Shown in pieces: positions 3,950 to 56,479 of a stretch of 64,000 bases of DNA. This stretch comes from Leucoraja ocellata (Eukaryota). The notes under the pieces are model-generated. The model was not told the DNA's origin. It saw only the letters and a list, made by a program, of their open reading frames with translations, and did not search any database. The DNA lies in contig JAWMAR010000447.1 of NCBI GenBank assembly GCA_036785375.1, forward strand, positions 558,001 through 622,000, in the 5' to 3' direction. Position 1 is the stretch's first letter. Every line of letters begins with the position of its first letter. A program made the position numbers and the translations under genes.

Positions 3950-4411
3950 CAGGTTGACTGGATGAATGTAGCCGTTCTCGTACTTGTCATTGGCTAGGAT
4001 CTGTCTCAGGTGTGCGATGTAGCTGGACGCCAGCCGCAGGGTGTCGAGTTTGGACAGTTTGGTGTCTGGCGGGACCCAGGGCAGGGTGGTTTTGAGGCGG
4101 GAGAAGGCTTTGCTGAGTACCCTCATTCTGGCCCTCTCCCTGGCGTTAGCTGCGTTACGTTGAACCTGCTTCCCTTCCTGGGTCACTCCATTCAGAGGGG
4201 GCTTGTTGGAGCTCGCCTTGCGTCTCTTTCCCGAAGCTCCCCTGACCTTTTTTGGCGACTCGTGGTCGGTGTTGGAGCTGTCTTCGTTGCTGTCGTTGGA
4301 AGTGCAGAACTCCTTGCTGGATTTCCTCTTTAAAGCGTCGCATTCCTCCTCCGTGCCCAGCCCGTCCATTTCCTGGAGGTCTTCTGCATCGCTAACGGAC
4401 CCAGTGGACAT
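3950..4411 (-). CDS. TCF21: Transcription factor 21 (capsulin/Pod1/epicardin), coding exon 1 (154 codons) containing the bHLH domain
   Basis: ATG at 4411 gives [14 protein letters not shown]...[76 protein letters not shown], matching vertebrate TCF21 as I recall it. The exon ends in CTG|gtaaca (phase-0 donor). Confidence 0.97.
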
Positions 4412-4499
4412 GGTTATCGGCGCGATCTCCTGCAAATTGAGACTTAATGACCGAGAAGGCAGCGAGGAAGTTAGGAATGTGGCGCTCTTCAGCTGGGAT

Positions 4500-4620
4500 G
4501 AATTCCTTATACTCAGTTTGATTGAAGACCCTGCGATCTGGATGCGACATCCACAATTTATCTCGCTTCTCGGGAGGCGGGACCCAGGGTGAGAGAGGCG
4601 GGGCCGGTAGCTTTTGACAA
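4500..4620 (-). promoter_or_regulatory. TCF21 proximal promoter/5' UTR, CpG-rich with GC boxes
   Basis: GC-box-like gggaggcgggac (~4572) and aggcggggcc (~4597); TATA-like gataaat on the minus strand (~4557-4563). CpG density is high from ~3850 to 4620. Confidence 0.55.
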
Positions 4621-5724
4621 GCACTGATTCTCAGTCAGAATAATGTCCATGAAACTTTACAGAACCGCAATTTCTTTTTGCGGTTAGTCTATAAAACAAA
4701 AAACCGGAAAATATTTAGCAATTGCATCTAGATTCTGTGATATTTATAGATAACTAGTTTTTTTGGTGTAGTTCAAATTCATAAGTACATAATTTCTAGG
4801 ACAAGATGTATGCCATTCGGCCCATTAAATACACTCGGCAATTCAATCTTGGCTGACATATCTTTCCATCTCAACCGCATTCGCCTGCCGTCGTCCCATA
4901 ACCCCCGACACCCTCTATACAAGATAACTGTGTTAATGGGAATTCCCAGTAAGACAACATGTCACCATAAAATGTGATTATTGATTGGCAATTTTCATTA
5001 AAATTCCAATTAATTGGCATATTTTATGGTGATACTTTTTGGAAATAGACTGTCGTCTTTTAAAGAAAGGTCCACCCGAATAGGGTGATATTTTGGACTA
5101 GTTCTACATAACTAGACGGCATGTTAACATACCCGGGTAAGATGAATTGAAATTATATATTTTTTAAGTACACAAAAACACGGACGAAATGGTTAGTAAA
5201 CAATTGGCGTTTATAGATTTTGGCTTCGACATTTTCAACATCACAATAGTGACTTTAAATTCAAAAATCTCCATTGACTTTAAAGTGCTTAAGGAAAACT
5301 TGAGTGCACGAAAGGCCCCAATTAAATCAACCCCCTTCCCCGCAACCTGTCTCTCAACCCACCGAGGATTAGAAAGGTCCATAGTGTTTCAGAAAACAGC
5401 TTCACAATATTCCGAAACATTGTGCAAAGTTTGGGATAATATTTTGTTTGTTTGGAGGAATTCGGCCGTGGAACCGAAATCGATCCACATAATATATCGC
5501 CAGTTTGTAAAATAAAAAGGTCTATACATGGTTGTTCTTTGGTTAAAAAAAACCCCAGGCTTTTCTTGGGAAACCGCCATTCGGTCTAGCGGGGATAGAA
5601 AACGTTTATTTATCGAGTGAGCTATTTCCATTTTGTTTTCCATCCTGATTATTCATTGAGCAACAGATTTTGTTGATCCAAATCGTCTGAAATAAATGTT
5701 TCAACAATAAAGGAAATAGTTTGG

Positions 5725-6012
5725 CGACAAGAAGAGACTGCAGATGCTGGAATCTTGAGAAAAAAAATCTAAGTGCTGGAGGATAGACACACAATGCTGG
5801 AGTAACTCAACTGGTCAGGCAGCATCTCTGGAGAGAAGGAAGGAACAGGTGACGTTTCAGATCGAGACCCTTCTTCAGACTGAGGGTCAGGGGAGAGGGA
5901 AACCAGTGGTGTGGAAAGGTACAGTGTAAAGTGTGGGAGCTCAGTGGATCAGGCAGGTTAGTGCAGGGAATGGACAAAACGACGTTTCGGGTCGGGACCC
6001 TTCTTCAGACTG
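5725..6012 (-). mobile_element. Tandem Penelope-like terminal fragments with hammerhead-like cores (5851-5878, 5981-6008)
   Basis: The reverse complement of 5981-6008 reads CTGAAGAAGGGTCCCGACCCGAAACGTC. Confidence 0.65.
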
Positions 6013-7087
6013 ATCAGGAAATGGAACCGCGGCTAACTCTCACATCTCAACTTCAAACTCCTTCCTAACCTCTGACAACTGCGACCTACACACGGAAACG
6101 TGGGAGATCCAAAAGACAACTGCACCTTGCTCTGATTCTTCCAAGATAATATCATGAGCCATGAAAATAATCTATTTTTTTAGGAGGCGGCATAAAACTA
6201 TCGGCCATGAATGAATTCATCCTCCCCACCTCCTTCGCTTACTTGCAATCATCGCCGTCCTTTCTGATCTTTTTAATTTAACTCGGAGGTTCTTTCGTAT
6301 GTTGCCACTAGCGGAGGTGTTGCGGTTTAGCGCGCAGTGAAGCTCACGCCAGCACCACTGGTTTACAGAATGTAAAACAAGGAGGCAGTAAATTCTGAAA
6401 GTGTAAAGGCGGCCGTGCTAGATTTATGAAGCTTGCGTCTCACTCTTCTTGGGCTTGTTTGTGCAGGTGGAGGGAGAAATGATTGCCCGCAGATAAGATT
6501 TATGATGAAAATGATGGGTTTCGTAAACGAATAAAATAAGGAGAGATTAATGGCTCCATCGTCAGCTTAGACCCACTCGGACCAAAGCAGTCAAACTTGA
6601 GAACAGGAAAGAGAGATGATTTTGAGATGCAATCAGGAGAAAGTACCGCGAAAAGATGCCTAGAGGTGAACTTTCCGGAATAATCATTATACTGCTCGAA
6701 GGTTTCATACCCGATTGGATATTCCTTGGATTAATTACAGGACATTATTTTGTTTATTTTTTTAAATAATTAGCTTTAATTTACACATTTTAATCTACAC
6801 GGCTTTTCAAATTTGTCATAAAACATTACTACTATTAATGCGTTGACGAGTTATTCAGTTGCGATACAGATGTCGTTCAAACGTTTCTAACGGGGTCGCT
6901 AAGAAAGCCAGCCAGTTTCCTCCGCCACCCATTCGAATCTCCCCTACTTTACAGGGCACCAGCGTTTAATATTAGTTCCTTGAGTCAAAAGTGTTTTATT
7001 GTCATGTGTCCCAGATAGATTTTTACTTGCAGCAGCACAACATATTATCTGTAAACAATATAATAAATGGGGGAAAGTACAGTGTGT

Positions 7088-7091
<4 letters not shown>

Positions 7092-7132
<41 letters not shown>

Positions 7133-7157
7133 TAGAGGGGGGGGGGGGGGGGGGGGG
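7092..7157. repeat. (CA)n microsatellite followed by a poly-G run
   Basis: Seen directly; explains the low-complexity ORFs at 6944-7330. Confidence 0.95.
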
Positions 7158-8604
7158 CAGGGTGGAGAGGGAGAGGGAGATAAATCCCCTTGCGCAGAGT
7201 TGAAACCAGGATGAAAACTGTTGCCCAGTTCGCAACCATTTAATACAATTGAATAACGCAGGTGTTTGGATGGGGAAAAGAGGCCATGTCTCCTAAAATT
7301 GTTATTTTCAGCTGTATTCTGCCATTCCACTAATCCTTGCTAACAGAACAGGCAATGAGATTGACTGGTCATCATGAGCCCGGGTTAGATAGGATTGCCA
7401 GTTTGAATTCTCTGTTTAATTCCTCGAGAACCTGTGGTTGAAAAGTGACAGTATTTGAAGAAGCCCGAAACGTTGCCTATTTCCTTCCGTCCGTAGATGC
7501 TGCCTCGCCCGCTGAGTTTCTCCAGCATTTTTGTCCAGCTGCAAAGTGGCGGATGGATTACCGTTTGGTTGGAAATGATACGGAATTAAAAGACCCAGCC
7601 CGTGCTAATATTGAGGATGTCTCCAATTTGAGGCCTGGAGCATTTCTGTTGGGCGAATGAGCGACCTGTTCTCGAACTTGAGCAGCAACGTGTCCAGCTC
7701 TGGAAAGCGCCACAGAAGGCAGCGCTTAAGTACTTTGTGAGTTTAAATCCTCACTGTGACCTAAACCCCGACTGCTCCATTACTGCACATTGTGCGAGTT
7801 AGTGACCTTCAAACCCAGACCCCCCGCGCTATATAACTAAAACAAACGTTTCCTTCAGCCCATTCAGTTGTTTCTTGGACGAATGAAATGAATCCGGTAT
7901 TATTTGCTGTTAATATATCTATATTGACCTATCTTGTTCATTTAATTCTGTTCAATTATGTTATCCCCTATAATCTGTTGCGCTCCCGTATTGTTTAAAT
8001 GGGTCTAAATAGCCTCATGTTACATTCCATTTGCTCCATGTTGCAATCTTTCCCCATTCATCCCTTAATACTATTAAGTTAATAGTACGACAAAAGCATC
8101 CCAGATAAGTTTACAAGAAGATTCTGCAATTGTCAACTGTTACAGTTTGAAACAGAACAGATCTCGATTTCATTCCAATTGGTCTCAGCTTGAACCTCAC
8201 ATTGTCAGAAATACCAAGGCCGATTCACATTTATAGTAACCTCTGGAATGCATTAGAGCTGAAGATATGACTCGCCAACTTGATTTTATGAGCCTAAATT
8301 CCACTTTTAAATAGATTTAGACTCGAGAAGGCAGCCTCGCCACTCAGCCCATTAGGATGCATTAGAAGTGATGCACAGGACGTTCTAACTTATTGATCTT
8401 CACCAGCATGGATATGTGATATGACCCAGTCGCAGGGGGCTTAAAAAGCCACAAACAATCAATTTGCAACAATGTCGAGTTTCACAGCGGATAAGGAGTT
8501 GTCGGTACATTTCGAATAATTTGACGAGTTTTCGATCTCGTTTACATCACTCACCCGATCCATTGAGTTCATCGGGGAATTCAGTCACTACAAATACATG
8601 ATTG

Positions 8605-37276: not shown

Positions 37277-37542
37277 AGATTAGTTCAGAGATGCAGCACA
37301 GAAACAGGCCCTTTGGCCCACTGAATCCGCGCCGACCAGCGACCCCCGAATACTAACGCTATCCGAGACACACTGGGAAAATTTACAATTTTACCAAAGC
37401 CTGTTCACCCACAAATCTGTATGTCTTGAGTGTGGGAGAAAAACCAAAACTGTACAGAATCTGTACAGACAGCAGCCGTGGTCAGGATTGATCCTGAGTC
37501 TCTGGCGCTGAAAGGCAGCAACTCTACCGCTGAGCCACCACG
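37277..37542 (-). mobile_element. HE1-like V-SINE
   Basis: Same diagnostic motifs as the other copies. Confidence 0.75.
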
Positions 37543-38369
37543 CTGAACTACTTTGTTTCTTCTTGAAACTCACAAAAATCTCCTTCCTGAGGATGGAGAG
37601 TAGGGAGCCAGGATTTATAATTTTAAGATGGGCGAGATGAAGAATTTTCTCTAGCCCTGAAGGCTGTGGATATTTAGTTATTGCAGTCAGTACATTTTGA
37701 ACTCCAGGGAAATCAGGTGCATTGGAAATAAGGCAACAAAGTGTAATTGTGGTAGAGGATTACACATTGTCACAGATAACTACACCTTATCTGATTGTAC
37801 TGAATGAGATAACAGCTAGCTGGGACATGTGGTCTGACCTACTCTTATTTCTTATGCTTTTCACAAGTATGTTTTTAACAATAATTTTGGCTTCATAAAG
37901 ACCTACACAATCCAAAAAATCCTAGTAAATGGAAGTTGGCACCACAAAACATTTTGGGTTCGACTTCAGCTGCAATTACATTGGTTAATTGTGAGATCTC
38001 TCGGGAAAATCATTCCCATATAGTCTTTCCAATATAACGCAATTTACCTTTCTATGGAAACATTTGTAATGCTGCAATGGTGGAATTATGTGGTGGAAAC
38101 TACAGCAACTCTGCCAGCGCAAAGAGAGATATACGTATGGTGCGAACTGGACATAACCAATTTCAACAACAGATATACCTACAGAATGCCATACTGGAAA
38201 AGAAAGTAAATTTACAATATATTTACAAAATAAGCCGAACCGAATCATAGCACCTATCTTCGAATCATGGGGTTTTTTTTGTTTAACACTGAAGGTTTAT
38301 GAAAATAATATAACCAGGAAGCTCTGGGAGATATATTTGAATGAAGTATCAAAATGAAGTATCAAAAAG

Positions 38370-44885: not shown

Positions 44886-46006
44886 GCATGTATCTGTGTT
44901 GCATCTCAGCTAGGAGTGCATGATACTGGCATGCCTGAAGTGGGAAGTGTGCCATTACCCAGTTTCAATTTAATTAAAACATGAAAATGTGCTGCAGTGC
45001 CAAGTGAATCTTTGTGTATATATCTGATGAAAACACCCAGTTAATTCATCATTTTAAAAGCATATTGGATTGAGTCACTTCCCAGACATGAACGGGAATG
45101 CACGGTGAGCAGACAGATGTGAAATCTTCAGCATGAGAAGAGAAACTTATTCAGACAGTAGAGAAAGCTGTGTAGGAAGAAACTGCGGATGCTGGTTTTT
45201 ACTGAAGACAGACACAAAGAGCTGGAGTAACTCAGCTGCCTGACCCGCTAAGTTACTCCAGGATGATGTGCCTATTGTCGAGAAAGCTGGATCATTATGA
45301 GTCTGAAGAAGGGTTCTGACCTGAAACGTCAACCACCCATGTTCTCCAGAGATGCAGTCTGACCTGTTCAGCTGTGTCTTTCATTATGTTCACCATGTAC
45401 CTGAATATTTATGAACCAAGGCCCTTTTCTTTTCCAATTGTTTAACACCAGGGTCTGGAACTTACACAGGAGATACAGATGTCGATAGGATGGTGAATAT
45501 ATCTGGGAAGGCTGCGAAGAGGTGTGGTGTTTCTCACAAATGAACAGCACAACTTGTTAGCGTCCCATTTTCCGTGTTATATCAAAGCCTGCAGCTGCTG
45601 GTATTGGAAGTATTTCAGAGTAATATTCACTCATGTTTCTTTATGCTTGTGGGCCAGAACTTCCATTTGCTGAAATTAAAAACTTCAAGCTCTGCCAATG
45701 TTTCCAGGGGTCAGGAGACTTGGGTTATTGCATGAAATAAGTGGCCTAAAGACCACATTGTACAGCTGGTGATAGTGAGTAATTCAGCAGTGTGCTGCCG
45801 CAGCTAGTCTTGGCAGTTGGCAGGGCCTCATCAAGATGCTTGGTCAACCAGAGAAATGTTCCCAAGAGAGTTAGCTTCTCAAATTGAACAACCTCATTAC
45901 TCCAAATACAAGTGCACAACCTTTTATCCGAAAGCCTTGGGACCAGACACTTTTCGTAATTCGGAATTTTTTGGCTTTCGGAATGGAAGATATTTAGCGT
46001 AGATTT

Positions 46007-46078
46007 TAACGGCTGGCTCAGTGGTAGAGTGCTCGGCTCATATCCGCAAGGTCGCGAGTTTGCGCCTCGATCCCGGCA
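46007..46078 (+). pseudogene. tRNA-Met(CAT)-like pseudogene inside the TIR element
   Basis: D-arm/A-box tggctcagtggtagagt, anticodon arm cgg-ctCATat-ccg, variable region aggtc, T-arm cgag-tttgcgc-ctcg. The acceptor stem does not pair. Confidence 0.6.
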
Positions 46079-46357
46079 GTTACTCGATCGCAAGTTTGAG
46101 TCTTCAATGTAGTTTTTTCTTGCAGAATAGGAGAGAATAGGGAGGGTTAGGCTGGGATCATTCTCTGCGAGATGATCTTAGTGCGGGAGACAAGTGTAGG
46201 AGAGGTGTACTGACTGTGTGGGCAGAACTTTGGAAGTGATTGCCCACCATTCTCAAAAGCCGCTGTGTCTCCCTGTCCCTGGGATAGCAGGGGGCGATCA
46301 AACAGCACAATAACCCCCTCCCCCTCCAACTCCAGAGGAATCCGCTCCCCGATGGGC

Positions 46358-46460
46358 CGCTACAGCGACAAGTGGCAGTTCGCCCACAGCCCGAGCTGCG
46401 CCACCCCAAGAACAAGACGCACCTTGCACACCATCAGCTTCTGCCCCTACGGGGAGCGTG
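46358..46460 (+). pseudogene. Captured fragment of a ZFP36/ZFP36L-family tandem CCCH zinc-finger coding sequence
   Basis: Reads RYSDKWQFAHS...ELRHPKNKT...TLHTISFCPYG, against the family motif CxYGxKCQFAHG..ELR...[22 protein letters not shown]. Further copies at ~46555-46597 (-, RYGDKCQFAH), ~46820-46862 (+) and ~47093-47155 (+). Confidence 0.85.
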
Positions 46461-48002
46461 TTCCTCTGGAGTTGGAGCGGGGCTGGGCTGGAGTTGCTGA
46501 TCTGGGATCTCCGTGCTTGCAGTGGGCCTGGGGGTCGGTGTCCCGATGAGGGGGCGCAGCTCGGGCTGTGGGCAAACTGACACTTGTCGCCGTAGCGACC
46601 CATCGGGGAGCGGTTTCAGGTGGTCCTGACGTCTTCGACCACCCCCCTGTACAGGAGCTGAGACTGGGAACTGTACCGCCCTTGCAGGTGAGCAGGAGAG
46701 TGGGGTTGTTTGCAGTTGCAGAGGGAGGGGGCAAGGGCGGTACAGTTCCCAGTCTCAGCTCCTGTCCAGGGGGGTGGCCGGAGACGTCAGGACCAACAGG
46801 AACCCGCTCCCCGATGGGCCGCTACAGCGACAAGTGGCAGTTCGCCCACAGCCCGAGCTGCGCCCCCTTATCCGCAACCCGGGTTCCTCTGGAGTTGGAG
46901 CGGGGCTGGGCTAGAGTTGCTGCTGGCTGTGAGTCTCCGGGATCTCCGTGCTTGCAGTCGGTGTCCCGTTGGACCTGATGTCTCCGGCCACCCCCCTGGA
47001 CAGGAGCTGAGACTGGGAACTGTACCGATCTTGCCCCCTCCCTCTGCAACTGCAAACAACCCCACCCTCCTGCTCACCTGCAAGGGCGGTACCCGCAACC
47101 CCAAGAACAAGACGTACCTTGCACACCATCAGCTTCTGTCGCTACGGGGAGCGTGTTCCCCTGGAGTTGGAACGGGGCTGGGCTGCTGCTGGCTGTGGGT
47201 CTCTGGGATCTCCGTGCTTGCAGTGGGCCTGGGGGTCGGTGTCCTGTTGGTCCTGACGTCTCCGGTGACTGGCACTGACCTGCTGGCATCACTGACGTGA
47301 AGACAGTGCAAAGCCCCCGCACCGGTGCAATGGGCGGGGAGCTGGAGAGGGGAGGGAAGGGGTCACACACATGGCCGGGAAGCAGAGGGGTGTAGGTGGG
47401 GTGAAACTGAAGGGAGCGACAATCTGCTGCTGCCTGCCCGTTGAGTTAAAAAGTTCCCACGCAAGACTCACGATACACTGTGTATCGTGAGTCTACCGTG
47501 GGAACTTTTTAACTCAGCGGGCAGGCAGCAGCAGATTGTCAATTATTAACCCTCCCGCGCAATATACCCTCACCTTCTCTTTATGAATGGGGATTTAGTT
47601 CCCCTTTCTTCGAGGACCGACCAGAGGTTCTGCTGTCATCACTGCGGGCCGCCCTCGGTAAACGTCTTCAAGGACCTTTCTTCAAGGACCGAAAAAATGT
47701 CCGCTATTCGGAGCTTTTCGATATTTGGAATTTCGGATAAAAGGTTGTGCACCTGTACATTACTGCCAGGCAACATGTGGCCACTTAATGTCGTACAGTC
47801 ATAGCACCATAGCGTCATACAGCATGGAAATAGGTCCTTACAGGCCCAACTCGTCCATGCCGACCAAGATACCACATCTAAGCTAGTCCCATTTGCTCAA
47901 AACATTTGGCCTATCACCTCCCTAAATCTTTCCTTATCCGTGTCCTGGTCCAAGTGTGTTTTACATGTTGTTAATTTTTCATGTTGCCCCAACGACATCC
48001 CC

Positions 48003-53481: not shown

Positions 53482-56479
53482 AGGGGCTGTCTCACTGCGG
53501 TGACCTAATTCGCGAGTTCGGACGAGTTTCCCCATGACTCATACTCGCAGCATGGTCGACATGAGGTCCTAGAAGGTCTTTGTAACTCTCCTTCATGCTC
53601 GAGAGTAGTCCCTGCATACTCAAGGCCTCAGTTAGGTCGCGGCGTATTTTTCAACATGTTGAAAAATGCCCGCGAGTAAAAAAAGATCGAAATGGAAAAA
53701 ATCAATATTTTTTTACTCGCGGGTTTAGTCGAGGTAGGTCATAGTAGGTCATAATGCTATTTGTAGGTAGTCTCAATCAAAGTTAATCAAAGGTAGTTGA
53801 AGGCAAAGCTCATTGAGAAAAATAAGGCAAGTAAACCGACCGGTAATGCTAAATGCTCGCTAAACTTTATTAAACATGGTCTGGCTTCTTAGAAACATAG
53901 AAACATAGAAAATAGGTGCAGGAGTAGGCCATTCGGCCCTTCGAGCCTGCACCGCCATTCGATATGATCATGGCTGATCATCCAACTCAGTATCCCATCG
54001 CTGCCTTCTCTCCATACCCCCTGATCCCTTTAGCCACAAGGGCCACATCTAACTCCCTCTTAAATATAGCCAATGAACTGGCCTCAACTACCTTCTGTGG
54101 CACAGAATTCCACAGATTCACCAATCTCTGTGTAAAAAATGATTCTCTCATCTTGGTCCTAAAATACTTCCCTCTTATCCTTAACCTGTGACCCCTAGTT
54201 CTGGACTTCCCCGACATCGGGAATAATCTTCTATAAGATCCCTCCCTCAATCTTCTGAATTCTAGCGTGTACAAGCCGAGTCTATCCAGCCTTTCTTCAT
54301 ATGAAAGTCCTGCCATGCCAGGAATCAGTCTGGTGAACCTTCTCTGTACTCCCTCTATGGCAAGAATTTCTTTCCTCAGATTAGGAGACCAAAACTGTGC
54401 ACAATACTCCGGGTGTGGTCTCACCAAGGCCCTGTACAACTGCAGTAGAACCTCCCTGCTCCTATACTCAAATCATTTTGCTTTGAATGCTAACATACCA
54501 TTTGCTTTCTTCACTGCCTACTGCACCTGCATGCCTACTTTCAATGACTGGTGTACTATGACACCCAGGTCTCATTGCATCTCCCCTTTTCCTAATCGGC
54601 CACTATTCAGATAATAGTCTACTTTCCTGTTTTTGCCACCAAAGTGGATAACCTCACATTTATCCACATTATACTGCATCTGCCATGCATTTGCCCACTC
54701 ACCCAACCTATCCAAATCACCTTGCAGTCTCCTAGCATCCTCCTCACAGCTAACATTGCCCCCTAGCATCGTGTCATCCGCAAACTTGGAGATGTTGCAT
54801 TCAATTCCCTCATCCAGATCATTAATATATATTGTAAATAGCTGGGGTCCCAGCACTGAGCCTTGTGGTACCCCACTAGTCACTGCCTGCCATTCTGAAA
54901 AGGACCTGTTTACTCCTACTCTTTGCTTCCTGTCTGCCAGCCAGTTCTATCCACATCAATACTGAACCCCCAATACCGTGTGCTTTAAGTTTGTATACTA
55001 ATCTCTTATATGGGAACTTGTCGAAAGCTTTCTGAAAGTACAGATATAACACATCCACTGGTTCTCCCTTATCCACTCTACTAGTTACATCCTCTAAAAA
55101 TTCTATAAGATTCGTCAGACATGATTTACGTTTCATAAATCCATGCTGACTTTGTCCAATGAATTCACCACTTTGCAAATGTGCTGCTATCCCATCTTTA
55201 ATAACTGACTCCAGAATTTTCCCCACTACCGATGTTAGATTAACTGGTCTGTAATTCCCCGTTTTCTCTCTCCCTCCATTTTTAAAAAGTGGGGTTACAT
55301 TAGCTACCCTCCAGTCCTCAGGAACAACTCCAGAATCTAAAGAGTTTTGAAAAATTATCACTAATGCATCCACTATTTCTGCGGCTACTTCCTTAAGTAC
55401 TCTGGGATGCAACTTATCTGGCCCTGGGGATTTATCGGCCTTTAATCCATTCAATTTACCTAACACCACTTCCCGGCTAACCTGGATTTCACTCAGTTCC
55501 TCCATCTCATTTAACCCCCGGTCCCTTGCTATTTCCGGCAGATTATTTATGTCTTCCTTAGTGAAGACACAACCAAAGTAGTTATTCAATTGGTCTGCCA
55601 TGTCCTTGTTCCCCATGATCAATTCGCCTGTTTCTGACTGCAAGGGACCTACATTTGTTTTAACTAATCTTTTCCTCTTCACATATCTATAAAAACTTTT
55701 GCAGTCAGTTTTTATGTTCCCTGCCAGTTTTCTTTCATAATCTATTTTCCCTTTCCTAATTAAGCCTTTTGTCCTCCTCTGCTGGACTCTGAATTCCTCC
55801 CAGTCCTCTGGTAGGCTGCTTGTTCTGGCTAATTTGTATGCTTCATCTTTTGTTTTGATACTATCCCTGATTTCCCTTGTTATCCACGGATGCACTACCT
55901 TCCTTGATTTATTCTTTTGCCAAACTGGGATGAACACTTGTTGTAGTTCATCCATGCAGTTGTTAAATGCTTTCCATTGCATATCCACCGTCAACCCTTT
56001 AAGAATCATTTGCCAGTCTATCTTGGCCAATTCACGTCTCATACCCTCAAAGTCACCTTTCTTTAAGTTCAGGGCCCTTGTTTCTGAATTAACAATGTCA
56101 CTCTCCATTCTAATGAAGAACTCAACCATATTTCTTAAAAGTGTCTCCTCTCCTTCACCCCCCCTTCTCCCCCCTTCTCTCCCCTTCTCTTCCCCTCTCT
56201 TCCCTTCTCTCCACCCCTCCCTCCGCGCTCTCTAAAGGACTTACCGAACTGTGCCAGCCGTATTTTACCTTCCTGTTCATCACGGGTGTGAATTTCAAAT
56301 AGCGCTCCCCCGCTTCCCTTGGCCCCCGCCTTTGCGATGTGTTTGTGTGTGCAGACAGTCGATCCGGCTCGTGGTTTCATCGCTGATGGTTGATCCAGCT
56401 CGAGGTTTTTCAGGCAAGTGCCCTCGAGCTTGAAGGTCGAAGACAGTCTCTGAAAAGTCGCATCAATGGGACCGGCCCT
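53482..56479. mobile_element. PIF/Harbinger-like MITE interrupted by a CR1 LINE
   Basis: TTA TSD (53479-53481 and 56480-56482); termini AGGGGCTGTC and GGGACCGGCCCT. Confidence 0.75.
53892..56131 (-). mobile_element. 5'-truncated CR1/HER1-type LINE, ORF2 reverse transcriptase (few disablements)
   Basis: KSPGPD, NYRPVNLTS, QHGF..KSCLTNL, FQKAFD, GVPQGSVLGP and KFADD motifs over three ORF pieces; (aaacatag)n tail; candidate TSD ttctta. Confidence 0.95.

Follow-up and report, generated by a model that had tools for sequence, protein, structure and literature searches.

How did pieces of a ZFP36-family zinc-finger gene come to lie inside a short TIR element, and did that element take them from the gene itself? 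The window that we analysed is a stretch of 64,000 nucleotides of the Leucoraja ocellata genome (G000:C447:558001-622000; assembly size 3.44 Gb). A sequence-only reading of it had seen 25-bp TIRs, TA flanks, a GC-rich interior and four ZFP36-family pieces, and had proposed that the element's own family captured the gene fragment and multiplied it. We are confident, if short of certain, that the history is less direct: the window element is a transposase-less member, likely a deletion derivative, of a high-copy pogo/Tigger-type family, and it obtained its ZFP36 sequence second-hand, via an ISL2EU-type and then a Harbinger-type family.

Parts of the window element

The element (45909-47755) is 1,847 bp long, its 25-bp TIRs are 24/25 identical, and there are many direct and inverted repeats inside it. 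We distinguish the following features.

45907..45908, no strand: left TA target-site duplication (from the sequence and from family comparison)
45909..45933, plus: left TIR, 25 bp; in autonomous copies, this is the end downstream of the transposase gene
45909..46098, no strand: Tigger-derived end, with 81% identity to cargo-free autonomous copies
46144..47479, no strand: cargo block common to the Harbinger-type family (the Harbinger-type match is 46144-47541 if the fold-back copy is included)
46320..46355, plus: non-gene sequence of the original capture junction, common to the ISL2EU-type family
46320-46617, 46769-46996 and 47093-47265: ISL2EU-derived sequence (from sequence comparison)
46356..46452, plus: ZFP36 piece 1, the end of finger 1, the linker and the start of finger 2, with 4-, 12- and 11-nt deletions
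46547..46597, minus: ZFP36 piece 2, the end of finger 1, an inverted copy
46673..47092, no strand: largest internal inverted repeat (arms 46673-46806 and 46959-47092, 94%)
46818..46880, plus: ZFP36 piece 3, the end of finger 1 and the linker, with a 4-nt deletion
47093..47147, plus: ZFP36 piece 4, the linker and the start of finger 2, with an 11-nt deletion
47418..47540, no strand: fold-back palindrome with 61-nt arms, a putative deletion scar
47549..47755, no strand: Tigger-derived end upstream of the lost transposase gene, with 82% identity to a cargo-free autonomous variant
47731..47755, minus: right TIR, 25 bp
47756..47757, no strand: right TA target-site duplication

The basic description of the element was right. 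Both TIRs and the TA on either side are as first read, GC content is 61% at 46001-47000 versus ~42% across the window, and all four pieces align to exon 2 of the host ZFP36 gene (for 46356-46452, E = 6e-14 with a 10-kb subject). At 25 bp, the TIRs are short (40 bp or less), as in pogo/Tigger elements. There is no transposase sequence between the TIRs, and the autonomous element that we describe below matches the two ends only. Further hairpins overlap the inverted repeat at 46673..47092, and the fold-back at 47418-47540 is where older transposase-coding copies run into a Harbinger end and the transposase gene. Of the window element, 699 bp match the ISL2EU-type family, ~1,400 bp match the Harbinger-type family, and 266 bp match the gene; another ~240 bp have no identified source, which counts against the relay that we propose.

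The minus-strand piece is the only one that exceeds the Pfam cut-off for zf-CCCH (21.6 vs. 20.5 bits), and the two plus-strand peptides that were searched against Pfam had no match. This piece had been thought to be alone in keeping a cysteine and a glycine of the finger. Its cysteine is instead a private change, because it is encoded by TGT, as against TGC in the gene and TGG in 182/186 pieces of family copies; and its glycine codon is that of the family majority (114/186 pieces). Internal duplication after capture is real, but the argument for it from these substitutions fails, and the true evidence is a 4-nt deletion that is common to pieces.

Within the element, ARAGORN called no tRNA, and Rfam gave only sub-threshold hairpin matches; this includes 46013-46075, inside the Tigger-derived end, which by eye has the look of a tRNA-type A/B box. 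Elsewhere in the window, ARAGORN called a tRNA-SeC at 37474-37544 (minus strand), which may, as a guess, be a SINE head. There is also an open frame of 451 codons at 54879-56231 (minus strand), which we take to resemble a LINE fragment.

The donor gene and the Tigger-type family

A search of the genome with the zf-CCCH profile gave 62 matches among the 150 scored, and 30 loci were retrieved. Three of these are real genes: a ZFP36L2-like gene, a ZFP36L1-like gene, and a two-exon gene on contig C378, which has a 299-aa product in a public assembly. The parent of the cargo is the two-exon gene (G000:C378), as all four pieces align longest and best to it and the diagnostic sites concur. The donor had been placed among ZFP36, ZFP36L1 and ZFP36L2, of which only a ZFP36/tristetraprolin-like paralogue is left: alignments to ZFP36L1 or ZFP36L2 are shorter and weaker, and the diagnostic sites track the third paralogue. 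The C378 gene does not have Tis11B_N, which is present in the L1-like protein, so it fits ZFP36/tristetraprolin (TTP) and, judging from its sequence, may be the orthologue. Among named proteins, those closest to it are members of the ZFP36 family from rays and sharks. Both assembled copies (L091 on C378 and L335 on C2703) have one-base frameshifts, at different places, and the public protein is intact. These shifts are probably assembly errors; for C378 we say so because the 299-aa public protein and the searched part of the gene agree at 98% identity. In the 40 kb around the C378 gene, there is no TIR of the Tigger or the ISL2EU-type family. So, in the manner of a Pack-TIR, the element holds a host gene fragment with an identifiable and unlinked parent.

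The idea of a dispersed, multicopy family of TA-targeting TIR elements with ZFP36 fragments was borne out by counts made from the interior and from the TIRs. Among loci found by the interior, 29/30 have a TIR and 23/30 have both, and TA flanks all 23 two-ended loci. TA plus the TIR has 7,965 exact matches per strand (15,930 in total, and 0 for the control). The first 100 matches on contig C1 form 36 pairs and 28 singles, which corresponds to an exact-end rate of 0.72 and to ~11,000 elements. ZFP36 pieces are present in 21 of 38 two-ended elements (37 sampled plus L027; one more locus had no pair), and the other 17 belong to a sister family with only the ends in common. For the assembly, we estimate ~6,100 cargo-bearing copies (range 4,200-7,900, or about 4,000-8,000), a figure that is drawn from 13 Mb of one contig and is inflated by the haplotype duplicates that it includes (7/29 in a separate sample). 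A hard floor is given by 883 exact matches to a 31-nt cargo motif with the family-type deletion, some of which lie in the Harbinger-type family or occur twice per element. The copies are dispersed and have different flanks. TA is found on both sides in 97/97 two-ended Tigger copies (part of this sample was found with a TA-bearing pattern). Comparison with empty sites could be made for 17 of the 97, many of them noisy, with clean support in ~6/17; in clean cases, joining the flanks gives 2 bp more than the empty repeat has (L142, 9/10; L171, 20/20).

The sister family (L145, L149, L157 and 14 others on C1) is non-autonomous and 0.9-1.24 kb long, with the same TIRs and no ZFP36. It has ~62% GC and a strongly palindromic interior, and among its 1.24-kb copies identity is 96-99%.

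It had been advised to look for an autonomous pogo/Tigger element whose TIR matches, and a DDE_1 search of the genome led to one. This element is 2,361 bp long, has the window element's TIR with 1 mismatch, and encodes CENP-B_N, HTH_Tnp_Tc5 and DDE_1 (all three above cut-off in 2/2 proteins scanned), with 32 residues between the last two aspartates (DD32D). From the domains and the spacing, which also give the Tigger label, we classify the putative mobiliser as a pogo/Tigger-type transposase. The lack of a transposase holds for the window copy but not for its family, some cargo-bearing members of which have an open transposase frame. We found nine coding copies with ZFP36 cargo, six young and three older and broken. 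Five of the six young copies have open frames of 640-653 codons, stop to stop, and the sixth has a stop. The nine transposases form one clade (support 100/99), and four coding copies are 99.8-99.9% identical despite different flanks. In the older copies, a Tigger sequence of ~25 bp is present twice and brackets the cargo, which is located downstream of the transposase stop codon. In the young copies, duplicated cargo flanks the transposase gene on both sides. As the six young copies have neither Harbinger end nor scar and group with some non-autonomous copies, they may be recombinants.

We also observed cargo-free coding Tigger variants (L211, L221, L226 and L316) with an extended end that matches 47549-47690 of the window; these are likely intermediates that predate the gain of cargo. 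In tandem arrays on C373 (170-190 kb and 290-330 kb; L232-L235, L237 and L238), non-autonomous family members take turns with cargo-free copies of the Tigger transposase whose open frames span 599-671 codons.

Two other carriers and the probable order of transfer

Most of the remaining zf-CCCH matches belong to a family that is older, measures ~1.1-1.5 kb and has another TIR, for which there are 824 exact ends; it holds an undeleted ZFP36 piece of 560 nt. In all 17 long-cargo loci, similarity to the gene begins in one and the same region, at 73-87% identity; in most of them the match runs from mid-finger 1 to just beyond the stop codon, and two reach the 3' UTR. The family's TIR is present at one end in 14 of the 17 and at both ends in 8. 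The column majority of these copies differs from the gene at 24/499 sites, with no fixed deletion, and its single-change codons comprise 16 synonymous and 5 non-synonymous changes. The pN/pS of the copies is 0.56, which is evidence neither way in 17 copies that were chosen as the best zf-CCCH matches and contain 34 frameshifts. Of 29 elements sampled through their TIRs, only 5 contain the cargo; with the 3' part of the gene as the query, there were 555 candidates. The target is A|AT|T with duplication of AT (AT/AT in 22/30 two-ended copies), and the empty-site excess is 2 bp in L120 (49/57 matches), L083 and L123. L283, which is 3.6 kb long and flanked by AAT/ATT, has ends that are related to those of the first carrier but not identical. 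It contains a broken transposase frame; in L256, a copy of that transposase family in which the frame is open, there are THAP, HTH_Tnp_4 and DDE_Tnp_4 domains. In the accessible part of a study of PHIS transposons, ISL2EU has an A|AT|T target and a THAP-HTH-DDE arrangement and PIF/Harbinger has a 3-bp TWA target (Han et al. 2015, PMC4482050); the first carrier resembles the former, and the second carrier, described below, has the 3-bp TWA target. ISL2EU elements are said there to start usually with GG, whereas the TIR of the first carrier begins with AAG, so we file it as ISL2EU-type rather than as a member of ISL2EU. This is the family that has the Pack-TIR feature of capture directly from the parent locus. 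One ISL2EU-type copy on C6 (L068/L093) has an open frame of 242 codons that takes in the whole of finger 2 as well as the C-terminal motif of ZFP36.

The second carrier was found by using the segment after the cargo in old coding Tiggers as the query. It is a 2.0-kb family with 66 exact ends and with neither the Tigger TIR nor Tigger sequence. Among 40 stretches examined, 29 are two-ended, and 27 of those 29 have deleted ZFP36 pieces within ISL2EU sequence. None of the 29 has a plain Tigger match; one has a short match to a variant Tigger end, which counts against the order that we propose. The cargo has the 4- and 11-nt deletions, the change of Cys to Trp, usually two pieces, and ISL2EU-type flanks. 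A 3-bp TAA/TTA duplication flanks 13 of 22 distinct copies, and the empty-site excess is 3 bp in L406 (49/56 matches), with mixed results for the other five testable copies. A Kolobok/T2 identity was rejected (a 4-bp TTAA duplication in 0/22 copies). The ends are 75-85% identical, over 50-100 nt, to the ends of 9 of the 35 DDE_Tnp_4 transposase loci that we compared. One such locus, L265, carries both DDE_Tnp_4 and Plant_tran. DDE_Tnp_4 transposases of Harbinger and ISL2EU type are many in this genome (L251-L285; open frames of 400-540 codons; 150 matches among the 150 scored).

The genome, then, contains three families with their own ends and target sites and a common cargo, and the view that the window element's family took this cargo from the gene has to be given up: the cargo bears the junction, deletions and flanks of two other TIR families. 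A 36-nt non-gene junction is common to the Tigger pieces and the ISL2EU-type family, and a Phe-to-Leu change is found in 10/17 ISL2EU copies and in all 10 Tigger pieces aligned. The junction, this change and the deletions nest in the order gene, ISL2EU-type, Harbinger-type and Tigger, and so we infer that order of transfer from nested features rather than from dated insertions. The ISL2EU-type family would have made the first capture of the ZFP36 piece. The Harbinger-type family would have been next, and it has the cargo in a version with deletions and one duplication, inside ISL2EU sequence. A coding Tigger would then have taken up the block nearly as far as the Harbinger terminus (in old coding Tiggers, the Harbinger end stops ~5 bp before the terminus). 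When Harbinger end and transposase were later lost, a fold-back scar would have been left at 47418-47540, whose centre is present in 17/20 non-autonomous copies, and the transposase-less copies would be mobilised in trans by the Tigger transposase. The inverted piece and the fourth piece arose inside the Tigger lineage. As for mechanism, repair of the gap that excision leaves may have switched template to another locus at the hand-offs; this is likelier than nested insertion or end bypass, because there is no donor terminus or target duplication at the junctions and no family TIR near the gene. An RNA intermediate in the capture is possible, as the captured part lies within one exon.

Two results count against this order: the median divergences of the Harbinger-type (2.5%) and Tigger (2.8%) copies are about equal, and a tree of 240 nt of cargo does not cleanly separate the groups (5 changes vs. 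a minimum of 2). Also, the window copy keeps ~50 bp of Harbinger sequence that is missing from the old coding copies, so no sampled old coding copy is its direct ancestor. The relay might instead have had hand-offs that differed in order or number, with an unsampled donor to both the Harbinger-type and Tigger families or with repeated gain by Tigger. Besides the similar divergence, two Harbinger-type rows and one old coding Tigger that fall outside their groups in the cargo tree, as well as left cargo junctions that vary among Tigger subfamilies, point this way. We nevertheless think it improbable, given that the Tigger cargo contains a Harbinger-type terminal repeat, that this end is 75-85% identical to transposase-coding Harbinger elements, and that all 9 coding copies lie in one transposase clade. 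We give almost no credence to direct capture from the gene by a Tigger-type element followed by internal multiplication. The pieces do match the gene, and the Tigger lineage itself gave rise to two of the four, but 36 nt of non-gene sequence precede the gene match, with the same junction in the ISL2EU-type family, and the 266 bp from the gene compare with 699 bp of ISL2EU-type and ~1,400 bp of Harbinger-type matches. The common junction and deletions refute direct capture unless they arose independently three times.

Less improbable than these, and still unlikely, is that the cargo entered a non-autonomous Tigger first and that coding copies with cargo regained their transposase by recombination. 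This probably did happen in the young coding subgroup, which has cargo on both sides of the transposase and groups with non-autonomous copies. The old coding copies, however, cross the position of the scar into ~260 bp that are contiguous in the Harbinger-type donor, and so scarred copies cannot be the source of that stretch.

Fate of the cargo and comparison with known captures

Whatever its route, the cargo is in poor condition as coding sequence. The pieces contain no complete finger, have 4- and 11-nt frameshifts, and in 182/186 cases have Cys changed to Trp, and they are predicted to be unable to encode a finger. The two complete CCCH fingers in one frame that a functional ZFP36-type protein has are thus missing from the window element. 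The cargo is most likely a neutral passenger, and sequence analysis has so far given no sign of a benefit to the host. Alternatively, small RNAs from hairpin transcripts could target ZFP36 mRNA, or the cargo could aid the spread of the elements. Long inverted repeats take in gene pieces, cargo lies downstream of an open transposase frame, and three families were amplified after they gained cargo. We doubt such a function strongly, because exact matches to ZFP36 exon 2 are at most 16 nt long, because the sister family, which has these TIRs but not ZFP36, is similarly abundant (17/38) and is also GC-rich and palindromic, and because cargo is so infrequent in the sampled ISL2EU-type elements (5/29). 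A more elaborate idea, which we regard as a long shot, is that a still-active Tigger-type element carries a ZFP36 hairpin in its own transcript, that small RNAs from it tune ZFP36 mRNA or shield the element, and that the cargo was selected at each hand-off. Sampled words from a coding copy are found in sequencing runs (37-53% in DNA or untyped runs with three species labels, 6-22% in RNA runs); these are word counts only and not evidence.

The comparisons that follow concern the accessible portions of each source, which also included PMC6004289. Tan et al. (2021, PMC8277862) reported 370 Pack-TIRs in 100 animal genomes, of which four were multicopy, with an example of three copies. Like those, our element has TIRs and a host gene fragment with an unlinked parent, and the multicopy cases were also spread by transposition and often GC-rich. 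Unlike them, it has thousands of copies, cargo that came via two other TIR families, and coding copies that bear cargo, and its Tigger family did not capture directly from the parent locus. pogo/Tigger elements have a TA target, a TIR below 40 bp, the domains CENP-B_N, HTH_Tnp_Tc5 and DDE_1, and a range of DD29-56D, and pogo is treated as a superfamily apart from Tc1/mariner (Gao et al. 2020, PMC7386202); our family agrees in target, TIR length and domains, with DD32D inside the range, and differs in its 1.4-2.6 kb of foreign cargo. In bats, Helitrons amplified a piece of NUBPL to about a thousand copies, among 12,382 copies from 54 genes (Thomas et al. 2014, PMC4224331). These too are vertebrate DNA transposons with stepwise captures and gene fragments at high copy number, but they are rolling-circle elements with captures within Helitrons, whereas here three cut-and-paste groups were crossed. 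Plant Pack-MULEs (PMC8277862, PMC6431247) are likewise non-autonomous elements of 1-2 kb with rearranged, GC-rich gene fragments and mobilisation in trans, but they hold many fragments at low copy number; here the host is a vertebrate, the transposases are non-Mutator, and one fragment is in thousands of copies. We met no mention of gene capture by PHIS elements in that part of PMC4482050. TcMar content is reported to be expanded in skates and rays (PMC12361510), where we met no mention of cargo.

In the literature searched, whose scope excludes Repbase, Dfam, most subscription papers and supplements, there is no report of ZFP36 capture, of a relay across superfamilies, or of such a copy number; the three families may already be annotated in repeat databases. 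Gene capture by TIR elements is itself known, and what sets this case apart is a very high-copy vertebrate Pack-TIR, a traceable relay through three families, and coding copies that bear the cargo. Multicopy gene capture by cut-and-paste elements had been reported as rare and low-copy in vertebrates, and here one fragment is in thousands of copies. These copies are at risk of being misannotated as ZFP36 paralogues, and the near-identical copies with open frames are a candidate active vertebrate pogo element. As every intermediate persists in the genome, the junctions allow the template-switch model of capture to be followed. Finally, as the cargo crosses superfamilies, the element that spreads a gene fragment need not be the one that captured it.
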